Source of the DNA: Phyllobates terribilis
Lineage: Eukaryota
DNA: 64,000 nucleotides
Reading direction: 5' to 3'
Assembly: GCF_046119375.1 (NCBI RefSeq)
Contig: NW_027362768.1
Location: 146,816,001-146,880,000, forward strand
Shown here: one piece after another, positions 21,616-57,100 of the stretch
How positions within the stretch are numbered: the stretch's first letter is position 1
Layout of the letters: each line of letters begins with the position of its first letter
Position numbers and translations under genes: made by a program
Notes under the pieces: generated by a model
Databases searched by the model: none
The model's input: the letters and a program-made list of their open reading frames with translations, nothing else
Told to the model about the DNA's origin: nothing

Positions 21616-40496
<18,881 letters not shown>

Positions 40497-40671: not shown

Positions 40672-42295
40672 CAGTACAGACCAAAAGTTTGGACACACCT
40701 CATTTAAAGATTTTTCTGTATTTTCTTGACTATGAAAATTGTACATTCACACTGAAGGCATCAAAACTATGAATTACCACATGTGGAATTATATACTTAA
40801 CAAAAAAGTGTGAAACAACTCAAAATATGTCTTCTATTCTAGGTTCTTCAAAGTAGCCACCTTTTGCTTTAATGACTGCTTTGCACACTCTTGGCATTCT
40901 CTTGATGAGCTTCAAGAGGTAGTCACCGGAAATGGTCTTCCAACAATCTTGAAGGAGTTCCCAGAGATGCTTAGCACCTGTTGGCCCTTTTGCCTTCACT
41001 CTGCGGTCCAGCTCACCCCAAACCATCTCGATTGGGTTCAGGTCTGGTGACTGTGGAGGCCAGGTCATCTGGCGTAGCACCCCATCACTCTCCTTCTTGG
41101 TCAAATAGCCCTTACACAGCCTGGAGGTGTGTTTGGGGTCATTGTCCTGTTGAAAAATAAATGATGGTCCAACTAAACGCAAACCGGATGGAATAGCATG
41201 CCGCTGCAAGATGCTGTGGTAGCCATGCTGGTTCAGTATGCCTTCAATTTTGAATAAATCCCCAACAGTGTCACCAGTAAAGCACCCCCACACCATCACA
41301 CCTCCTCCTCCATGCTTCACGGTGGGAACCAGGCATGTAGAGTCCATCCGTTCACCTTTTCTGTGTCGCACAAAGACATGGTGGTTGGAACCAAAGATCT
41401 CAAATTTGGACTCATCAGACCAAAGCACAAATTTCCACTGGTCTAATGTCCATTCCTTGTGTTCTTTAGCCCAAACAAGTCTCTTCTGCTTGTTGCCTGT
41501 CCTTAGCAGTGGTTTCCTAGCAGCTATTTTACCATGAAGGCCTGCTGCACAAAGCCTCCTCTTAACAGTTGTTGTAGAGATGTGCCTGCTGCTAGAACTC
41601 TGTGTGGCATTGACCTGGTCTCTAATCTGAGCTGCTGTTAACCTGCAATTTCTGAGGCTGGTGACTCGGATAAACTTATCCTCAGAAGCAGAGGTGACTC
41701 TTGGTCTTCCTTTCCTGGGGTGGTCCTCATGTGAGCCAGTTTCTTTGTAGTGCTTGATGGTTTTTGCAATTGCACTTGGGGACACTTTCAAAGTTTGCCC
41801 AATTTTTCGGACTCACTGACCTTCATTTCTTAAAGTAATGATGGCCACTCGTTTTTCTTTACTTGGCTGCTTTTTTCTTGCCATAATACAAATTCTAACA
41901 GTCTATTCAGTAGGACTATCAGCTGTGGATCCACCTGACTTCTGCACAACACAACTGATGGTCCCAACCCCATTTATAAGACAAGAAATCCCACTTATTA
42001 AACCTGACAGGGTACACCTGTGAAGTGAAAACCATTTCCGGTGACTACCTCTTGAAGCTCATCAAGAGAATGCCAAGAGTGTGCAAAGCAGTCATCAAAG
42101 CAAAAGGTGGCTACTTTGAAGAACCTAGAATATAAGACATATTTTCAGTTGTTTCACACTTTTTTGTTAAGTATATAATTCCACATGTGTTAATTCATAG
42201 TTTTGATGCCTTCAATGTGAATGTACAATTTTCATAGTCATGAAAATACAGAAAAATCTCTAAATGAGGTGTGTCCAAACTTTTGGTCTGTACTG
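40672..42295 (-). mobile_element. Full-length Tc1 transposon, ~265-bp TIRs, TA target duplication
   Basis: TA at 40670-40671 and 42296-42297; TIR CAGTACAGACCAAAAGTTTGGACACACC at both ends. Confidence 0.96.
40820..41884 (-). pseudogene. Tc1 DD34E transposase, 354 codons with a single TGA at codon 24
   Basis: MARKKQPSKEKRVAIITLRNEGQ*VRKIG..., GRPR, WSDES, QQDNDPKH, PDLNPIEMVW. Confidence 0.92.
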
Positions 42296-43046: not shown

Positions 43047-46000
43047 GCTCTGCTGCATCCACTATCTGTAGGCACGCACGCACGCACGCACTCGGCTCTG
43101 CTGCATCCACTATCTGTAGGCACGCACGCACGCGGCTCTGCTGCATCCACTATCTGTAGGCACGCACGCACGCGGCTCTGCTGCATCCACTATCTGTAGG
43201 CACGCACGCACGCGGCTCTGCTGCATCCACTATCTGTAGGCACGCACGCACGCGGCTCTGCTGCATCCACTATCTGTAGGCACGCACGCACGCGGCTCTG
43301 CTGCATCCACTATCTGTAGGCACGCACGCACGCACGCGGCTCTGCTGCATCCACTATCTGTAGGCACGCACGCACGCGGCTCTGCTGCATCCACTATCTG
43401 TAGGCACGCACGCACGCGGCTCTGCTGCATCCACTATCTGTAGGCACGCACGCACGCACGCGGCTCTGCTGCATCCACTATCTGTAGGCACGCACGCACG
43501 CACGCGGCTCTGCTGCATCCACTATCTGTAGGCACGCACGCACGCACGCGGCTCTGCTGCATCCACTATCTGTAGGCACGCACGCACGCGGCTCTGCTGC
43601 ATCCACTATCTGTAGGCACGCACGCACGCGGCTCTGCTGCATCCACTATCTGTAGGCACGCACGCACTCGGCTCTGCTGCATCCACTATCTGTAGGCACG
43701 CACGCACGCGGCTCTGCTGCATCCACTATCTGTAGGCACGCACGCACTCGGCTCTGCTGCATCCACTATCTGTAGGCACGCACGCACTCGGCTCTGCTGC
43801 ATCCACTATCTGTAGGCACGCACGCACTCGGCTCTGCTGCATCCACTATCTGTAGGCACGCACGCACTCGGCTCTGCTGCATCCACTATCTGTAGGCACG
43901 CACGCACGCGGCTCTGCTGCATCCACTATCTGTAGGCACGCACGCACGCGGCTCTGCTGCATCCACTATCTGTAGGCACGCACGCACGCACGCGGCTCTG
44001 CTGCATCCACTATGTGTAGGCACGCACGCACGCGGCTCTGCTGCATCCACTATCTGTAGGCACGCACGCACTCGGCTCTGCTGCATCCACTATCTGTAGG
44101 CACGCACGCACTCGGCTCTGCTGCATCCACTATCTGTAGGCACGCACGCACTCGGCTCTGCTGCATCCACTATCTGTAGGCACGCACGCACGCGGCTCTG
44201 CTGCATCCACTATCTGTAGGCACGCACGCACTCGGCTCTGCTGCATCCACTATCTGTAGGCACGCACGCACTCGGCTCTGCTGCATCCACTATCTGTAGG
44301 CACGCACGCACTCGGCTCTGCTGCATCCACTATCTGTAGACACGCACGCACTCGGCTCTGCTGCATCCACTATCTGTAGGCACGCACGCACGCACTCGGC
44401 TCTGCTGCATCCACTATCTGTAGGCACGCACGCACGCGGCTCTGCTGCATCCACTATCTGTAGGCACGCACGCACGCGGCTCTGCTGCATCCACTATCTG
44501 TAGGCACGCACGCACGCGGCTCTGCTGCATCCACTATCTGTAGGCACGCACGCACGCGGCTCTGCTGCATCCACTATCTGTAGGCACGCACGCACTCGGC
44601 GCTGCTGCATCCACTATCTGTAGGCACGCACGCACTCGGCGCTGCTGCATCCACTATCTGTAGGCACGCACGCACGCACGCGGCTCTGCTGCATCCACTA
44701 TCTGTAGGCACGCACGCACTCGGCTCTGCTGCATCCACTATCTGTAGGCACGCACGCACTCGGCGCTGCTGCATCCACTATCTGTAGGCACGCACGCACT
44801 CGGCGCTGCTGCATCCACTATCTGTAGGCACGCACGCACTCGGCGCTGCTGCATCCACTATCTGTAGGCACGCACGCACTCGGCTCTGCTGCATCCACTA
44901 TCTGTAGGCACGCACGCACTCGGCGCTGCTGCATCCACTATCTGTAGGCACGCACGCACTCGGCGCTGCTGCATCCACTATCTGTAGGCACGCACGCACG
45001 CACTCGGCGCTGCTGCATCCACTATCTGTAGGCACGCACGCACTCGGCTCTGCTGCATCCACTATCTGTAGGCACGCACGCACTCGGCTCTGCTGCATCC
45101 ACTATCTGTAGGCACGCACTCGGCTGTGCTGCATCCACTATCTGTAGGCACGCACTCGGCTGTGCTGCATCCACTATCTGTAGGCACGCACGCACGCACT
45201 TGGCTCTGCTGCATCCACTATCTGTAGGCACGCACGCACGCACTCGGCTCTGCTGCATCCACTATCTGTAGGCACGCTCTGGGCTCTGCTGCATCCACTA
45301 TCTGTAGGCACGCTCTGGGCTCTGCTGCATCCACTATCTGTAGGCACGCTCTGGGCTCTGCTGCATCCACTATCTGTAGGCACGCACTCGGCGCTACTGC
45401 ATCCACTATCTGTAGGCACGCACACACTCGGCGCTACTGCATCCACTATCTGTAGGCACGCACGCACTCGGCTCTGCTGCATCCACTATCTGTAGGCACG
45501 CACGCACACACTCGGCTCTGCTGCATCCACTATCTGTAGGCACGCTCTGGGCTCTGCTGCATCCACTATCTGTAGGCACGCACACACTCGGCTCTGCTGC
45601 ATCCACTATCTGTAGGCACGCACGCTCTGGGCTCTGCTGCATCCACTATCTGTAGGCACGCACGCACTCGGCTCTGCTGCATCCACTATCTGTAGGCACG
45701 CACGCACTCGGCTCTGCTGCATCCACTATCTGTAGGCACGCACGCTCTGGGCTCTGCTGCATCCACTATCTGTAGGCACGCACGCACTCGGCTCTGCTGC
45801 ATCCACTATCTGTAGGCACGCTCTGGGCTCTGCTGCATCCACTATCTGTAGGCACGCACGCTCTGGGCTCTGCTGCATCCACTATCTGTAGGCACGCACG
45901 CACTCGGCGCTGCTGCATCCACTATCTGTAGGCACGCACGCACTCTGCTCTGCTGCATCCACTATCTGTAGGCCCGCACGCACTCGGCTCTGCTGCATCC

Positions 46001-49000
46001 ACTATCTGTAGGGCTGCACGCACTCTGCTCTGCTGCATCCACTATCTGTAGGCACGCACGCACTCGGCTCTGCTGCATCCACTATCTGTAGGCACGCACG
46101 CACTCGGCTCTGCTGCATCCACTATCTGTAGGCACGCACGCACGCGGCTCTGCTGCATCCACTATCTGTAGGCACGCACGCACGCGGCTCTGCTGCATCC
46201 ACTATCTGTAGGCACGCACGCACGCGGCTCTGCTGCATCCACTATCTGTAGGCACGCACGCACGCGGCTCTGCTGCATCCACTATCTGTAGGCACGCACG
46301 CACGCGGCTCTGCTGCATCCACTATCTGTAGGCACGCACGCACGCGGCTCTGCTGCATCCACTATCTGTAGGCACGCACGCGGCTCTGCTGCATCCACTA
46401 TCTGTAGGCACGCACGCACGCACGCGGCTCTGCTGCATCCACTATCTGTAGGCACGCACGCACGCACGCACGCGGCTCTGCTGCATCCACTATCTGTAGG
46501 CACGCACGCACGCGGCTCTGCTGCATCCACTATCTGTAGGCACGCACGCACGCGGCTCTGCTGCATCCACTATCTGTAGGCACGCACGCACTCGGCTCTG
46601 CTGCATCCACTATCTGTAGGCACGCACGCACGCGGCTCTGCTGCATCCACTATCTGTAGGCACGCACGCACTCGGCTCTGCTGCATCCACTATCTGTAGG
46701 CACGCACGCACTCGGCTCTGCTGCATCCACTATCTGTAGGCACGCACGCACTCGGCTCTGCTGCATCCACTATCTGTAGGCACGCACGCACTCGGCTCTG
46801 CTGCATCCACTATCTGTAGGCACGCACGCACGCGGCTCTGCTGCATCCACTATCTGTAGGCACGCACGCACGCGGCTCTGCTGCATCCACTATCTGTAGG
46901 CACGCACGCACGCACGCGGCTCTGCTGCATCCACTATCTGTAGGCACGCACGCACGCGGCTCTGCTGCATCCACTATCTGTAGGCACGCACGCACTCGGC
47001 TCTGCTGCATCCACTATCTGTAGGCACGCACGCACTCGGCTCTGCTGCATCCACTATCTGTAGGCACGCACGCACTCGGCTCTGCTGCATCCACTATCTG
47101 TAGGCACGCACGCACTCGGCTCTGCTGCATCCACTATCTGTAGGCACGCACGCACGCGGCTCTGCTGCATCCACTATCTGTAGGCACGCACGCACTCGGC
47201 TCTGCTGCATCCACTATCTGTAGGCACGCACGCACTCGGCTCTGCTGCATCCACTATCTGTAGACACGCACGCACTCGGCTCTGCTGCATCCACTATCTG
47301 TAGGCACGCACGCACTCGGCTCTGCTGCATCCACTATCTGTAGGCACGCACGCACGCACTCGGCTCTGCTGCATCCACTATCTGTAGGCACGCACGCACG
47401 CACGCGGCTCTGCTGCATCCACTATCTGTAGGCACGCACGCACGCGGCTCTGCTGCATCCACTATCTGTAGGCACGCACGCACGCGGCTCTGCTGCATCC
47501 ACTATCTGTAGGCACGCACGCACTCGGCGCTGCTGCATCCACTATCTGTAGGCACGCACGCACTCGGCGCTGCTGCATCCACTATCTGTAGGCACGCACG
47601 CACGCACGCGGCTCTGCTGCATCCACTATCTGTAGGCACGCACGCACTCGGCTCTGCTGCATCCACTATCTGTAGGCACGCACGCACTCGGCGCTGCTGC
47701 ATCCACTATCTGTAGGCACGCACGCACTCGGCGCTGCTGCATCCACTATCTGTAGGCACGCACGCACTCGGCGCTGCTGCATCCACTATCTGTAGGCACG
47801 CACGCACTCGGCTCTGCTGCATCCACTATCTGTAGGCACGCACGCACTCGGCGCTGCTGCATCCACTATCTGTAGGCACGCACGCACTCGGCGCTGCTGC
47901 ATCCACTATCTGTAGGCACGCACGCACGCACTCGGCGCTGCTGCATCCACTATCTGTAGGCACGCACGCACTCGGCTCTGCTGCATCCACTATCTGTAGG
48001 CACGCACGCACTCGGCTCTGCTGCATCCACTATCTGTAGGCACGCACTCGGCTCTGCTGCATCCACTATCTGTAGGCACGCACTCGGCTGTGCTGCATCC
48101 ACTATCTGTAGGCACGCACGCACGCACTTGGCTCTGCTGCATCCACTATCTGTAGGCACGCACGCACGCACTCGGCTCTGCTGCATCCACTATCTGTAGG
48201 CACGCTCTGGGCTCTGCTGCATCCACTATCTGTAGGCACGCTCTGGGCTCTGCTGCATCCACTATCTGTAGGCACGCTCTGGGCTCTGCTGCATCCACTA
48301 TCTGTAGGCACGCACTCGGCGCTACTGCATCCACTATCTGTAGGCACGCACACACTCGGCGCTACTGCATCCACTATCTGTAGGCACGCACGCACTCGGC
48401 TCTGCTGCATCCACTATCTGTAGGCACGCACGCACACACTCGGCTCTGCTGCATCCACTATCTGTAGGCACGCTCTGGGCTCTGCTGCATCCACTATCTG
48501 TAGGCACGCACACACTCGGCTCTGCTGCATCCACTATCTGTAGGCACGCACGCTCTGGGCTCTGCTGCATCCACTATCTGTAGGCACGCACGCACTCGGC
48601 TCTGCTGCATCCACTATCTGTAGGCACGCACGCACTCGGCTCTGCTGCATCCACTATCTGTAGGCACGCACGCTCTGGGCTCTGCTGCATCCACTATCTG
48701 TAGGCACGCACGCACTCGGCTCTGCTGCATCCACTATCTGTAGGCACGCTCTGGGCTCTGCTGCATCCACTATCTGTAGGCACGCACGCTCTGGGCTCTG
48801 CTGCATCCACTATCTGTAGGCACGCACGCACTCGGCGCTGCTGCATCCACTATCTGTAGGCACGCACGCACTCTGCTCTGCTGCATCCACTATCTGTAGG
48901 CCCGCACGCACTCGGCTCTGCTGCATCCACTATCTGTAGGGCTGCACGCACTCTGCTCTGCTGCATCCACTATCTGTAGGCACGCACGCACTCTGCTCTG

Positions 49001-50400
49001 CTGCATCCACTATCTGTAGGCACGCACGCACTCGGCTCTGCTGCATCCACTATCTGTAGGCACGCACGCACTCGGCTCTGCTGCATCCACTATCTGTAGG
49101 CACGCACGCACGCACTCGGCTCTGCTGCATCCACTATCTGTAGGCACGCACGCACGCGGCTCTGCTGCATCCACTATCTGTAGGCACGCACGCACGCACT
49201 CGGCTCTGCTGCATCCACTATCTGTAGGCACGCACGCACTCGGCTCTGCTGCATCCACTATCTGTAGGCACGCACGCACGCACTCGGCTCTGCTGCATCC
49301 ACTATCTGTAGGCACGCACGCACTCGGCTCTGCTGCATCCACTATCTGTAGGCACGCACGCACTCGGCTCTGCTGCATCCACTATCTGTAGGCACGCACG
49401 CACTCGGCTCTGCTGCATCCACTATCTGTAGGCACGCACGCACGCGGCTCTGCTGCATCCACTATCTGTAGGCACGCACGCACTCGGCTCTGCTGCATCC
49501 ACTATCTGTAGGCACGCACGCACTCGGCTCTGCTGCATCCACTATCTGTAGGCACGCACGCACACACTCGGCTCTGCTGCATCCACTATCTGTAGGCACG
49601 CTCTGGGCTCTGCTGCATCCACTATCTGTAGGCACGCACACACTCGGCTCTGCTGCATCCACTATCTGTAGGCACGCACGCTCTGGGCTCTGCTGCATCC
49701 ACTATCTGTAGGCACGCACGCACTCGGCTCTGCTGCATCCACTATCTGTAGGCACGCACGCTCTGGGCTCTGCTGCATCCACTATCTGTAGGCACGCACA
49801 CACTCGGCTCTGCTGCATCCACTATCTGTAGGCACGCACGCACTCGGCTCTGCTGCATCCACTATCTGTAGGCACGCACGCACTCGGCTCTGCTGCATCC
49901 ACTATCTGTAGGCACGCACGCACTCGGCGCTGCTGCATCCACTATCTGTAGGCACGCACGCACTCGGCTCTGCTGCATCCACTATCTGTAGGCACGCACG
50001 CACTCGGCGCTGCTGCATCCACTATCTGTAGGCACGCACACACTCGGCTCTGCTGCATCCACTATCTGTAGGCACGCACGCACTCGGCTCTGCTGCATCC
50101 ACTATCTGTAGGCACGCACGCACACACTCGGCTCTGCTGCATCCACTATCTGTAGGCACGCTCTGGGCTCTGCTGCATCCACTATCTGTAGGCACGCACA
50201 CACTCGGCTCTGCTGCATCCACTATCTGTAGGCACGCACGCTCTGGGCTCTGCTGCATCCACTATCTGTAGGCACGCACGCACTCGGCTCTGCTGCATCC
50301 ACTATCTGTAGGCACGCACGCACTCGGCGCTGCTGCATCCACTATCTGTAGGCACGCACACACTCGGCTCTGCTGCATCCACTATCTGTAGGCACGCTCT
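43047..50400. repeat. ~7.3 kb satellite of ~40-bp unit GGCTCTGCTGCATCCACTATCTGTAGGCAC(GCAC)n, roughly 180 copies
   Basis: Directly visible; length variants come from GCAC copy number. Confidence 0.98.
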
Positions 50401-51255: not shown

Positions 51256-52587
51256 GACTTTAATGGGGCAATGTGTTAAAGGGACAGTCTCCTAAATGCA
51301 ATCCCAGCCTATAAGGTCTATTGGGACCAAAAACCTTATAGATACGACACGGTGCCCCCCTCGGTGTATTATAGGGGTGGCCATTCCTGAGTACATGTCA
51401 CCTCTCCTGACACATTCAGTTTAGTCAGTAATTTTACTCCCCATAATATAACAATTCTGAAAATTCGTTGTATGATATAGGTCCTCTGTTGTCCCTCCTG
51501 GAAATGTATGACTAAAGCAATAACTGTGTGTTACTAATCGTGGAGGGGGTGGTCCCGTACACTTAGACCATCCAGGCATTGTTGACCGTGTCACGTTCGA
51601 GGAACACACCTTGCCCTAGTTGTCAATTTAGTCTACATTTCTAGGAGTAATAACAGAGGAACGACACGAGAAATAAGAAGAGGTGCCACCGTATTATTGT
51701 GATTTTATTTTTCTTAGGGGGAAAACAAATATTTAATCATACAGAATAAGAGGGATTTTTACTGCTGTTTGTTTACAGCTTGTTGTCTAGGTTACCAGCC
51801 ACTTCATCAGTCTGTCAGTAGTGGCCGGTCTCCTTGGCAAGGATCCTCAGTGCCCTTGCACTTCTGTGGTGCTTGAGAGGTAAAGCTGCTTCTGTTTGCA
51901 GCATCAAAAAGCACTATAGCGGATCACTAGCGCAATAATGCTGCTGGTCTGATCTGTCAATCAAGCAGGAGAGCAGTCCCCCAACAAGTTGGGCACTGCT
52001 GAAAACAAATTATGAAACAACCTCTTTAATGGTTAATTTGCAAGAGCCTTCACTGCACAGAACACTTCTTCTCCAGAGTCCAGTGGTGGCGGCTTTACAC
52101 CACTCCATCCGACACCCAGCATTGTGCTTGGTTATGTAAGGCTGCATGCAGCTGCTTGGTCATGAAGCTCCAGTGTTTGTGCTGATGAGGAGGTCTGTCC
52201 TTTGCAGTTATGGAGTCAGCAGAGCGGTGGTGACTTTTCTGCCCTCTGCTCCTCAGCACTCGGCCCCCCGGGTCTCCACTTCATGGCTGAGTTGCTGCGG
52301 TTCCTTCACTTCTCAATAATATCACTCACAGGTGATGGAGGAAGAAATGTCATGCCCAGACTTGTTACCCCGGTGGCTGCTAGTACAGGACCGTGCTTGT
52401 ATCAGCGAGCTCTGCACCACTGGCTGCTCTGTCACATGGTAGTAAAGGCAGACGGCACGGCGGGGGCCGGATGTTATACACTGGGGGGGGGGGAGATAAA
52501 AAACCTGAATTGATTGATTGACATGTCCCAATACTTTTCTCTGTAGTCTACGTTCAAGCTTGGTGCCGCCAATTTCATTGTTTTTGC

Positions 52588-52920
52588 ATATTAAATTTCC
52601 CAGAGCAGCATTGCACGGCGAATAAGCTTCCTTACCTTGGCATGCCAGAGCTGGTATGTCACTCCCGAGAAGGAGAAACATTACCCCTTAGACCTCAGTC
52701 CAGAGCCTCTCACCTAGCCAAATCAGTTCTCATACTTTGCACTGATGAGGGCCAACAGCCCGAAACACCGTGTCTGCAAATTGAGATTCTGATTTGGCTT
52801 TTATCCTAAGTCATATCGCACGACTCGTTAAAGGGTCGATTGTGACTTGTAGGATCCCTGCTTCCAATAGGTGGCGCTACAGAGTACAAGTCCTCTTTCT
52901 CTCTGAAGAGGCAATTTGCA
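52588..52920 (+). mobile_element. Retrozyme-like 333-bp non-coding insert with 12-bp flanking direct repeat
   Basis: CATTGTTTTTGC at 52576-52587 and 52921-52932; contains the hammerhead. Confidence 0.75.
52716..52799 (+). ncRNA. Type I hammerhead ribozyme
   Basis: Stem I TTTGCA/TGCAAA, CTGATGA core, stem II GGGC-CAACA-GCCC, GAAA, short stem III ACA(CCG)TGT, GTC cleavage triplet (C at 52774), extended stem I AGCCAAATCAG/CTGATTTGGCT. Confidence 0.9.
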
Positions 52921-54115
52921 CATTGTTTTTGCTGTGAGTTTTGGAGACTGCAGAAAACAAAATAAACACAATGTGAACGCAGCCTAATATAATCTATGAT
53001 AAACCTGTTGGAAACCCTGGTGAGGAGTCGTCTGGTGAGTCAGAGCAGAAATCACCCATGTTTGTAATGAGATTACATGTTGGAGGCTTCCTGGTGCAGG
53101 TCACAATCGTGTTGTGCAAATCCACAGCGTCCAGACCCATCTTTGACCTCATTTCAGTGACTGTCTGATAATCCTGCCTGGCTGTCTGTTTATAGGAACC
53201 CGGAGACTCTATAATCCTGTCCTCTGTCCGGGGTCTTTTCTTATATCGGATCAGTGGTGCTCCAGCTCCTGCCGCCCCCATTGATCCACTATTTGAAGGG
53301 GCCATAGCTCTCTGCATCCCCTTGTTTGCCAGGCAGGACGCCTCACGTTCTGCATTGTTATTCCTGCTATTACAACTCATTGCTGCTTAGTCGCAGTCAT
53401 GTGAATAGGACTGAGCTGTAATACCAGGTGCAGCCACTACTAAATGTATGGTGCTGTGTCTAACAATGAAGGGGCCATGGTATTTGCCCCTGCTGTGGGC
53501 TGATCAGTGGGAGTGTTGGTAGTTGGGCCCCACCAATCAGGTATTGATGATAGGATACATAATATATATTCAAGTCCCAGAGTACCATTTTAATTGTGTG
53601 TGCATTTAGGATCAGGAACGCATGTAATACGTTTTCTTCTAGTATCTTCATCGTGTCTTGTGCCTAAATGAACCTCCATATGTTACATAATTGATTTTTA
53701 ATAGAATAGTGTAATGCCTAATTTGCCCTGTGGGGGTGCTATAGGGAAATCAAACACTTGCTACAGGTTACAGCTGATTGCTGAGATCTCAGCTGCAGAT
53801 TCAACAAAAATGGATTGTACAAAGCGGATAACTGTCCAGGTCTCATTTTGTATCTCTGATGAGAGAACTTGTGTAATCATTCCTGATGTGAACATTGGCC
53901 AACGATGAGTAACGTTCGGAGGATTCTGATAGAAGTGGAGCGTCAGTGATGATTAATCTGACGTTACGTGTACTGAAGCTCTCGTGTCGCCTTCCTTCCA
54001 GCTTTCTATTACTGATGTGCTCCTTGCTGCTTCCTTGACTATTTCTCTTTTTAGGGATTCGCGATCACCAGTAATCCATACACTGGGACCAGCAGTAGCG
54101 CTTCCATGAGCCGAA

Positions 54116-54184: not shown

Positions 54185-57100
54185 GTAAGGAAATGCCAAG
54201 GTGGGTATGGAAATGGCGCTCCACTAGTGTTACGGGTGGGGGCGGGGGGGATCCTTGGAGTGCCGTACTTATTGTATATAAGCTGAAGAACCCGCAAGGT
54301 TCACGGGGCTCTGATCTGGCAGTCACGGACTACCGATGTGGCTGCTGAACCCGTGTCCGGTGACAACTCTACAAAACCTTGTACATCACAATACAACACA
54401 TGGATTTCCACATGTGACCGGTAATTTTTTTTTTAAAGGGGATGTATTGGATAAGCAAATAGTGCCACCCTTAGGCTGTGCCTGGTATTGCAATCCATGA
54501 ACAAAACTGAACTTTAATTACTGCTTAGCCCCTGAACAGAAGTGACTCTGTTTTTGGGACAATGTGGACAACCCTGGTGCGATCAGTCTACTTATGATTC
54601 TTTGTCTGGTTTGTAGCTCGGGCTCTTTATAGACTTCAACCCCGAGGACATGATGATGGGTATCCCAGATGACCCGGACGACGGAGATCTTGAGGCAGAA
54701 TTGGCTGCACTTACTGGTGGCAAGGTTGCACCTAAGGCCAAGCCTAAAGGAAAAGGTGAGCAAGCCGGCCGGCCGGCCATACACATCAGGTAGATGTCCG
54801 CCGAATGCTTGTTAGGCTGACTGCAATCTCTCAGGACTTCCTGTGTACATAGGATGACCGAGCATTCATATATTTTCAGTAGGGTGAGAGAATTTAAGCG
54901 TTATTCCCTATCCATCTGGAATAACTAATACAGGGACCCTCCAGCGATCTGGTGTGTGCATACTCAACTTTCACTCCATTCATTGTCTATGGGACTGCTG
55001 GAGAGAGTACATTGCTCTTCTATTATCGGCAGTCCCATAGACAATAAGTAGTGAAAAGTGTTGAGCATGCGCACCTCCAAGATGGGTGTGCAGAACTCTA
55101 GTTTCCGGGATCCAGAGCCCCTTTCTTGGTATTTGTCGGACCCCCAACGATCAGCAAGTTATCCCCTGGTATTCTGTATGGGTGTCCTGAAGAAGGAGTC
55201 AGTGTGACTCTGAAGCGCATAGACAATAAACCTGCATTCTATATCCGATCGGGAATGTCTTCTTTCCAGTAAACGCAGACTACTTCCATAGCCCTGACTA
55301 TTTTTTTCCAGAGCCCCGTTCTTTGGATTTCTAGGGGTCTCAGCAGTTGGACCCCCAACTATCAGCAAGTTATCCCCGATCCAATGGAGAAGGGATAAAA
55401 CTTTTTATTTTGGCAGCTAAAGGGCCTGGCTCTTCTACTGTACCACTGCATGTCTCCCATACAGAAGCATGGCTAACCATGCAAGTTACTAACTTCGGAG
55501 TGAAAAAGGGTCTCAAAATGGAAATAATCCAATATGTCTGAATTATGAGAAAGCTTTAGCCTCCATTCCCGTTTTTTTTTTTTTCCTCATCTGTCACACA
55601 ACTTCTGCAGAGCTTTCTCCTCTCATCGTATCATTGACATCTTGTAGATACATTTGACATAAAGGACTGATTTAACAAATTAACACCTACAACCAAAGGA
55701 AAATGCCAAATAAATATGATGAAAAAAATAAATAAAAAATCATCAGGTCGTCAACACAAATGAAAAAGCCCTACAAAAAACCCAATGATAATAAATAAAA
55801 TCAGAATGTAATTAAATAAATGTATTAATTTACAAGTTTTCTGTACATAAAATACCAAAATGCACAAGACAGGACATGATAAAATCCAAAGGAGGGGGAG
55901 GAACACAGGATAAGTAGCAGATGGGACAAAGGTCTTCTAGTTAATCCAATGGTAGTAACATAAATAGAAAAGACAAGGACCATTCTAAAGTACATATTAG
56001 TGAGACTACCAAAGGTTATAGATAATCACACGATTAGATAAAATGACCCTGACTTTCCAAAAAAATCAATCTGATAATATATTATAAATTTTTAATGTGT
56101 CAAGGAGGTCCAAAAATAACCAGAAGAGTATGCCGTAGGATGTAATATAATCAATCAGTGGAACATAAATCTCAAGGCGCTCCGCATAGTACGGCGAACT
56201 AACAGGTATAAGTCACTCATGATAGTAACAGAGCTGAAACATCCATAAAGTAAATGTAGCTGTGTAACTTCCAGCTTGTGTTTCGCTACGCTTCTTCAGG
56301 GAGTGCTTACTTATATTCTGATAGTTTATTTTATTGTCATTGGGGTTTTTTTTGTATTGGGCTTTTTCATAGTGCTACATTATAGTAAATGCCGCTGTGT
56401 AACCTCCAGCGTGCGTTTCGCTGCGCTTCTTCAGGGGGGGTTAATTTTATTTTACTTGATTTTTTATTCTTATTGTTTATTTTATTATCATAGGGTTTTT
56501 TTGTTTTACGACAGAAGCTCTTGGACAAATCACGCAACCAAAAGTACTTGTGCGAAATGTCTGCAGTTTGCTGTCACGTGACTATTTTAGAGCTAAGAGC
56601 AAAATTCCAGACACGTTGCACAGTTGCTTGCAAACTATATCGACCGTGTGTCGGATATTACATGACAGTCTCCTCTTAGTCACAGTAGGTGGCAGCGTGG
56701 CCCCATTTGACAATAATTAGAGGCGATTTCACAATGTGACCACAGCCTAAACTTTGCTGCTAGTAACCCATGACCCCCTTACTATGTCTCCACAGCTCCT
56801 CTCCCTATGGATCATATCGAGAAGATGGCACAAGAATGCATGAAAGACTTGGATGCAGAAGACGGAGATGATGACAATGACCTGGAGGAAGATGATGACT
56901 TGCTGGTAAATATTAACATTGCAGTATCACTACAGTGATATTTTGCAAAAGAAGTAGCAGAATTCTCTGAAATTTGGTTTTAATGAATGAAAATTTTTAG
57001 AAATTTACAACTTATGTTTTTTCTTTTTACTTTTTATCTATCTATCGTGCAGCAAAATATAAATACGAACGTCTCCACCCTTTCTAACCTTGCCAAAACT

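Follow-up and report, generated by a model that had tools for sequence, protein, structure and literature searches.

The stretch of DNA considered here (the window) comprises 64,000 nucleotides from Phyllobates terribilis and contains, toward its end, a short insert built around a hammerhead ribozyme motif. The locus raises the question of what this element is, by which machinery it was inserted and from what kind of RNA. The answer that we consider likely is that it is a retrozyme, placed there by a Penelope-like reverse transcriptase/GIY-YIG enzyme that copied a probably circular RNA. Positions are those of the window, and features lie on the + strand unless stated otherwise; within the element, q1 is window position 52588, the unit is 332 nt, and q333 is q1 of the next unit.

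An earlier, sequence-only reading had described a 333-bp insert without coding capacity, bracketed by perfect 12-bp direct repeats, and this description holds. The 12-mer CATTGTTTTTGC occurs exactly twice in the 64-kb window, as the left (52576..52587) and right (52921..52932) copies of a target-site duplication, and two matches were reached in 0 of 100 shuffles of the window. The insert itself (52588..52920; 333 bp, 47% GC) contains no ATG-initiated ORF of more than 55 amino acids, consists of one 332-nt unit plus 1 nt and departs by 4.4% from the family majority. The one-base overlap that had been assumed in joining its end to its start is correct, since the tandem period of other copies is 332. 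The microhomology to the target proposed at the same time does exist, but it is shorter than the TTTGCA suggested: only 5 nt, TTTGC, the last bases of the left duplication copy, also match the retrozyme, and they do so on the left, at the 5' junction, which means that the left border could lie anywhere from 52583 to 52588. The left flank (52300-52545) is a high-copy repeat and the right flank is single-copy. Contigs of two DNA runs of one organism (organism A) carry the right junction, none being joined across the insert; no empty allele was seen among the contigs, those of organism C not covering the right flank.

The unit carries a type I hammerhead motif with an extended helix I (52716..52799). 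Its core, helices I-III and GUC site occupy 52736-52780: helix I (52736-41/52775-80) pairs TTTGCA with TGCAAA, the CTGATGA core lies at 52742-48, helix II (GGGC/GCCC) at 52749-61 and GAAA at 52762-65, and a short helix III reaches 52773, with cleavage predicted after C52774 of the GUC, unit position 187. Through an internal loop, helix I extends into two further stems. The sequence of helix III, ACACCGTGT, is nearly palindromic, and the variant seen most often alters the central base only; this would fit cleavage as a dimer. Of 9 Xenopus retrozyme dimers, 8 are reported not to have cleaved in vitro. A second hairpin noted previously is present at 52803..52855 and is kept in young and old subfamilies. 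Also found where it had been placed, at 52864..52878, is a string presumably resembling a CTCF motif, in which older copies have GGCAC in place of GGCGC. The segment that spans the hammerhead and the second hairpin (52700-52870) has a folding z of -5.1, and a scan of the 64-kb window with Rfam at gathering thresholds gave 0 matches, hammerhead included. In a set of 29 units, both young and old, 91% of the cells of the proposed structure pair, compared with 28-44% in slid controls, and helix II shows a G-C/C-G swap; covariation in these units is weak, both sides having changed in only 4 of 68 pairs, a level that shuffles match.

A search of the 10.6-Gb genome with the insert as query gave 4,827 first-look candidates, and the best of the 40 that were scored are 94-95% identical and lie on many contigs. 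A 23-nt junction motif with an intact octamer has 1,764 exact matches in the genome, against 0 for its reversed control. The matches indicate a family of thousands of dispersed copies at 90-95% identity, together with older subfamilies. Its tandem copies have a period of 332 and reach up to 3.3 units, and copy length spans 0.3 to 3.3 units. The search for tandem and dispersed copies suggested by the sequence-only reading thus turned up many dispersed and short tandem ones, and its central claim, of a retrotransposed, non-coding hammerhead retrozyme with a real target-site duplication, is supported. One older copy lies in the window itself (24994..25165): it is 5'-truncated, spans the site that we call A with its octamer intact and ends at the site that we call B (both defined below). 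The family is also present in contigs of a second organism and in those of one further run, which we guess may be RNA; assembled contigs reveal neither RNA ends nor circles.

In unit size and ribozyme type, as well as in its tandem habit and its duplications, the family belongs to the non-LTR retrozymes, a known class of which it is a new member. The metazoan representatives of this class (axolotl Rtz331/Rtz353, newt satellite 2 and Xenopus families; PMC7229834, bioRxiv 10.64898/2026.07.22.740005) likewise have a unit of ~330 bp, a type I hammerhead with a short helix III, no ORF, GC below 50%, a range from dispersed monomers to short tandems and duplications of more than 4 bp. The family's 332-bp unit falls within the 150-450 bp of the class, its 47% GC is below the 50% limit, and it too has no LTRs. 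Fixed 3' ends, a pairing rule between two end sites and target symmetry are, as far as those reports go, features of the present family only.

These features emerged from 139 loci obtained with four queries (the whole unit, the hammerhead, the second hairpin and q13-78), or 133 after 6 duplicates were dropped. They are top-scoring matches and no random sample, the whole-unit query favoring A ends and q13-78 favoring B ends. Their 3' ends fall at A in 90, at B in 32 and elsewhere in 11, although the scoring windows for A and B make up only 7% and 9% of the unit; the 37 loci from the hammerhead query alone divide 29/5/3. Site A, the main 3' end, lies right after GCAATTTGCA (52911..52920 in the window), its ends being q333 plus 0-5, and would be the start of reverse transcription for the window insertion. 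Site B (52690..52700), with ends mostly at q103-113, is internal in the window copy and would be a second such start. The two are separated by ~105 nt, an interval that contains a hairpin (52638..52661) which is shorter or missing in some older copies. In all three DNA runs considered, which come from two organisms, loose contig ends accumulate at 52920. Older subfamilies end at the same two sites: in an older set of 30 loci, 7 end at A, 21 at B and 2 elsewhere, B being over-represented there by a query that spans A to B.

The 5' ends are variable and spread over the unit, and the main segments of the 133 loci range from 107 to 1,098 nt. There is no excess of exact monomers: only 6 of 133 main segments measure 325-350 nt, and the 5' start lies within ~12 nt of A in 7 of the 90 direct copies. 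The monomer, which had been proposed as the unit of insertion, therefore does not hold that status; the window monomer is one point on a continuum of lengths, its own length being due to a fixed 3' start plus chance 5' microhomology. Six 5' ends or inversion points pile up at q182-183, at the centre or loop of helix III (L010, L012, L119, L121, L133 and L138), against 0.8 expected, a figure for a single window chosen among many; the pile may mark a stall. What the earlier reading missed were the two fixed 3' ends and the rule by which A and B are combined, and these point to Penelope-like machinery.

Polarity of this kind bears on the notion that copies spread as DNA, whether through recombination of satellites, as extrachromosomal circles or in the manner of MITEs. 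Short tandem arrays do exist, as that route would have it, but 3' ends that are fixed while 5' ends vary, 5' inversions, 12-14-bp duplications and the lack of terminal inverted repeats in the element make it highly improbable, and end polarity already largely excludes it.

An inverted 5' segment is present in 43 of the 133 copies, and the sites at which their outer ends fall are far from independent. In 33 the two ends are A and B; A+A occurs twice (checked by eye) and B+B never, and the other 8 have at least one end elsewhere, often within the A-to-B interval. Were the ends paired at random, 17 A+B and 17 same-site combinations would be expected, and the observed values were reached in 0 of 100,000 permutations. 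The older set agrees, with A+B in 8 of 14 inversions and 0 same-site pairs. In 24 of the 33 A+B copies the B-primed arm passes through site A, so the two arms of an inverted copy overlap in the sequence copied. This last point is instructive with regard to LINEs. A LINE-type enzyme might have moved a SINE-like RNA with its true 3' end at B, A being an internal hotspot of twin priming, a process that also gives one RNA-3' end and one internal end and no B+B; the 7-18-bp duplications would likewise be LINE-like in size. In LINE twin priming, however, the arms are not known to overlap in sequence. Moreover, 67 of the 90 direct copies end at A, and no poly(A) or repeat tail was found at the family copy ends examined. 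We regard a LINE as an improbable agent. The A+B pairing supports, instead, the signature of a "tail" plus internal initiation that belongs to Penelope-like elements.

The target sites offer a view of the cutting step. Duplications of at least 7 bases flank 91 of the 133 loci, compared with 104 of 665 shuffled flank pairs; lengths run from 7 to 18 bp, with a mode of 12-14 bp. Empty sites were rebuilt for 53 A-ended copies with duplications of at least 9 matched bases. T prevails in them immediately ahead of the duplication and A 14-16 nt further on, and they begin with T-A-T-T-A (47-66% per position), in agreement with the RNA following site A. Overall, the targets are AT-rich and roughly symmetric, of an AATTT...AAA type. 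Such a profile reads as that of symmetric nicks ~13-14 bp apart, with priming probably aided by short microhomology. The window target fits on its left side (AATTT, then CATTG); the TTTGC microhomology of the window copy, being at the 5' junction, is at the opposite end from the priming site.

That Penelope-like enzymes move animal retrozymes has been proposed in reviews and in a 2026 preprint (bioRxiv 10.64898/2026.07.22.740005), which leave the mechanism and the recognition motif unexplained; according to one review (PMC7761336), metazoan retrozymes show no motif that would point to a helper, and no promoter. The anatomy of the present family, as read from its copies, supports the proposal. 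In accounts of Penelope-like elements (PMC8557442, PMC3846280), copies are truncated at the 5' end, form partial tandems or carry an inverted 5' copy, and just one end has a tail. The enzyme of anole Poseidon PAc is described (PMC11167929) as nicking and extending both strands at AT-rich DNA, with two internal RNA starts, as preferring uncleaved RNA in vitro and as starting at a non-homologous site. The family shares with these elements (anole Poseidon PAc, PMC11167929; rotifer Penelope, PMC3846280) 5' truncation, partial tandems, the inverted 5' copy and the one-end tail, as well as two internal starts downstream of a hammerhead, AT-rich targets and duplications of ~10 bp. It differs from them in lacking an ORF, in having a full hammerhead with extended helix I rather than a minimal one, in its tail of ~105 nt, three times the 30-40 nt of known Penelope-like elements, and in the 1-5 nt of target microhomology at its start site, where the anole enzyme uses a non-homologous one (PMC11167929). 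In the article texts searched, no prior description of fixed ends or of the A+B rule in retrozymes was found. The family may be seen as the genomic footprint of a reaction: it maps two start sites, reveals a pairing rule that is almost strict and gives the stagger of the cut along with the profile of the target. Its ends make the proposed link between Penelope-like elements and retrozymes, as well as the promoter question taken up below, directly testable: the footprint tells which RNA substrate to use in vitro and which products to expect, and it supplies a candidate promoter for mutagenesis.

Candidate sources of the enzyme are plentiful. The genome contains many Penelope-like ORFs with minimal hammerheads downstream and open frames of up to ~800 amino acids or more; an Atlas search of these ORFs returned RT/GIY-YIG clusters, Pfam did not recognize them, and a PDB search of them gave nothing. 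Candidates number in the tens of thousands, and the 50 plus 20 loci of two Penelope-like groups that were compared yielded no autonomous partner; in these 70 loci neither the ends nor the terminal repeats have homology to the retrozyme family, and their hammerheads are different and minimal. The retrozyme unit itself holds no RT plus GIY-YIG ORF. Two apparent matches to a Penelope-like group were discarded: one of 14 nt lies inside an ORF on the opposite strand, and one of 67 nt belongs to a separate old retrozyme copy. Three retrozyme copies (L019, L043 and L079) sit inside or beside Penelope-like ORFs. In the window, at 56249-56501 on the - strand, two minimal hammerhead-like motifs (CCCTGAAGAAGCG..GCGAAAC) form a 135-bp tandem that, by its sequence, appears typical of the Penelope-like terminal repeat of another family.

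With regard to the template, main segments cross the predicted ribozyme cut site in 121 of 133 loci, and 17 of the 19 A-ended copies recovered with the second-hairpin query extend beyond it; the cleaved linear monomer was accordingly rejected as the main template. The units of a given locus agree in their subfamily alleles (458 of 549 positions vs 333 expected) and have rare variants in common (45 vs 11 expected), as would follow either from a circle or from a homogeneous multimer left uncleaved. Of the two, the circle is clearly favored, because linear copying shortens arrays in each generation and long masters are rare. The 330-350-nt retrozymes of axolotl are reported to form circles. The other account has the same Penelope-like enzyme and the same two starts act on an uncleaved linear multimer, the hammerhead being dispensable for movement. 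Multimeric RNAs are described in salamanders, the anole enzyme used unprocessed RNA, for which ribozyme cleavage was unneeded (PMC11167929), and both the crossing of the cut site and the alleles common to units fit homogeneous multimer masters. If progeny were always shorter than the parent transcript, however, arrays should dwindle; copies of two units or more number only 12 of 133, the longest having 3.3, and no long tandem array is present among the first 100 of the 1,764 junction matches listed. The hammerhead core and helices have also been kept across subfamilies, the swap in helix II included. We consider this account unlikely, while giving it some weight; the preference of the anole enzyme for uncleaved RNA in vitro does mean that a circle is not required.

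Taking the circle as template, rare masters of at least two units would be transcribed, possibly from an octamer/SPH/PSE cassette of their own; two hammerheads would excise a monomer, and a host ligase would circularize it. A dimeric Penelope-like enzyme would introduce staggered nicks ~13-14 bp apart, and one 3' overhang would prime at site A, aided by base pairing, over 1-5 nt, with the UAUUA just downstream of A. Inverted copies would arise if the other overhang primed at site B on the same RNA, and direct copies if it captured the cDNA end by microhomology; in the window copy, the cDNA would have run once round from A before capture on TTTGC. An additional role for site A, in pairing with the cut 5' end and so blocking the ribozyme, was considered and dropped, being unsupported by the folds of three natural units as circles. 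Weighing against this explanation are the apparent scarcity of masters (the octamer lies upstream of two hammerhead cores in only 5 of 133 copies), thin covariation and the non-random loci, and further the lack of a partner among the 70 loci compared, the long tail, the target microhomology at the start site, the Xenopus dimers that did not cleave and the fact that no empty allele was seen.

An octamer had been predicted from the joining of the insert's end to its start, and at family junctions it is indeed intact as ATTTGCAT (1,764 exact matches); in the window copy it is only 7/8 at both ends (TTTTGCAT at 52582-89 and ATTTGCAC at 52914-21), the intact form being confined to the tandem junctions of other copies. 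At the junction typical of the family, TTTCCCAGAGGAGCATTGCA comes 6 nt after ATTTGCAT; we take it to be SPH-like, as we do the string TTTCCCAGA..GCATTGCA that in the window comes after the octamer, the two together (52582..52615) making a candidate distal promoter element. A PSE-like string follows at 52658..52673 (q71-86; family TCACTCTCCA[T/C]AAGG), with three changes in the window copy and a predicted small hairpin. Because of the octamer broken at both ends, the three PSE-like changes and the single ribozyme, the window copy, itself single and ordinary, is likely dead, and its one ribozyme makes the formation of a circle from it unlikely.

Comparison with vertebrate snRNA promoters (PMC2235858; host U1 and U2) brings out a perfect octamer at the family junction, an adjacent SPH-like string and a PSE-like string downstream. 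In chicken 7SK and U4B, SPH is reported to lie just downstream of the octamer, and host U1 has ATGCAAAT at -240. In older and many young copies the PSE-like string contains TCTCCACAA, which one variant of the host U2 array has at position -62; with a PSE expected ~60 nt upstream of the start site, a U2-like placement would put the start near q138 (52725), 50 nt before the cut. The resemblance to host U2 has a shuffle p of 0.04-0.5, other U2 variants matching at 7-8 of 9 positions, so that the PSE match is only suggestive.

On balance we lean slightly toward a promoter of the family's own. Only a little less probable is that the element has none and is made by read-through, the octamer being part of an RNA site recognized by the enzyme. 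The octamer coincides with start site A, and the PSE-like string, which also folds as a hairpin, has no significant similarity to the region upstream of host U1 and is marginal against U2; octamer-to-PSE spacing is ~75 nt in the family against ~175 in host U1, and retrozymes seem promoterless according to a review (PMC7761336). Read-through fits less well with the TCTCCACAA that older copies share with the U2 array variant, with the ATATGCAAAT that host U1 shares with the reverse of the junction, and with an unrelated 128-bp repeat in which the same octamer context is accompanied by an inverted SPH-like string, as expected of sites that act at the level of DNA. Newt satellite 2, too, is reported, at second hand, to have an snRNA promoter.

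Joining an own promoter to the two starts gives a bolder proposal, which we put forward tentatively and consider rather doubtful as a whole: two Penelope-like RT subunits, each serving one overhang of the 13-14-bp stagger, would start on a single circular ribozyme RNA at points ~105 nt from each other, the interval between the starts would be the family's own snRNA-type promoter, and B-ended copies would leave an outward-facing octamer-SPH-PSE cassette. If this were true, hundreds to thousands of portable promoters would have been seeded genome-wide, pointing into host DNA.

The 128-bp repeat is a dispersed minisatellite with 3,844 motif matches (L147:180-1462, L156-L185), and each unit contains GAAGAGGACAATTTGCATA, which resembles site A, and after it the inverted SPH-like string. 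The minisatellite lies within another element whose 3' flank is constant and in L147 abuts a U2 5' fragment; since the repeat is internal to that element, its array ends are uninformative and were set aside as evidence on site A. The snRNA genes of this genome have undergone extreme expansion: the U2 5' end has ~59,000 exact matches, largely in 1.3-kb tandem arrays (for example at C5:76.05-76.22 Mb, L155, and C1:534.63 Mb, L258), and U1, with ~206,000 rough first-look candidates, forms 1.08-kb tandem arrays. Elsewhere in the window, a 40-bp minisatellite forms an array of 7.3 kb at 43080-50397 (182 copies, 94% matches), and at 29068-32659 an ORF encoding a LAP2alpha domain precedes broken RT/RNase H-like frames, the whole being, in our view, a likely DIRS-type retrotransposon. 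An open 330-amino acid frame for a Tc1-type transposase (Pfam HTH_Tnp_Tc3_2, DDE_3) lies on the - strand at 40823-41812.
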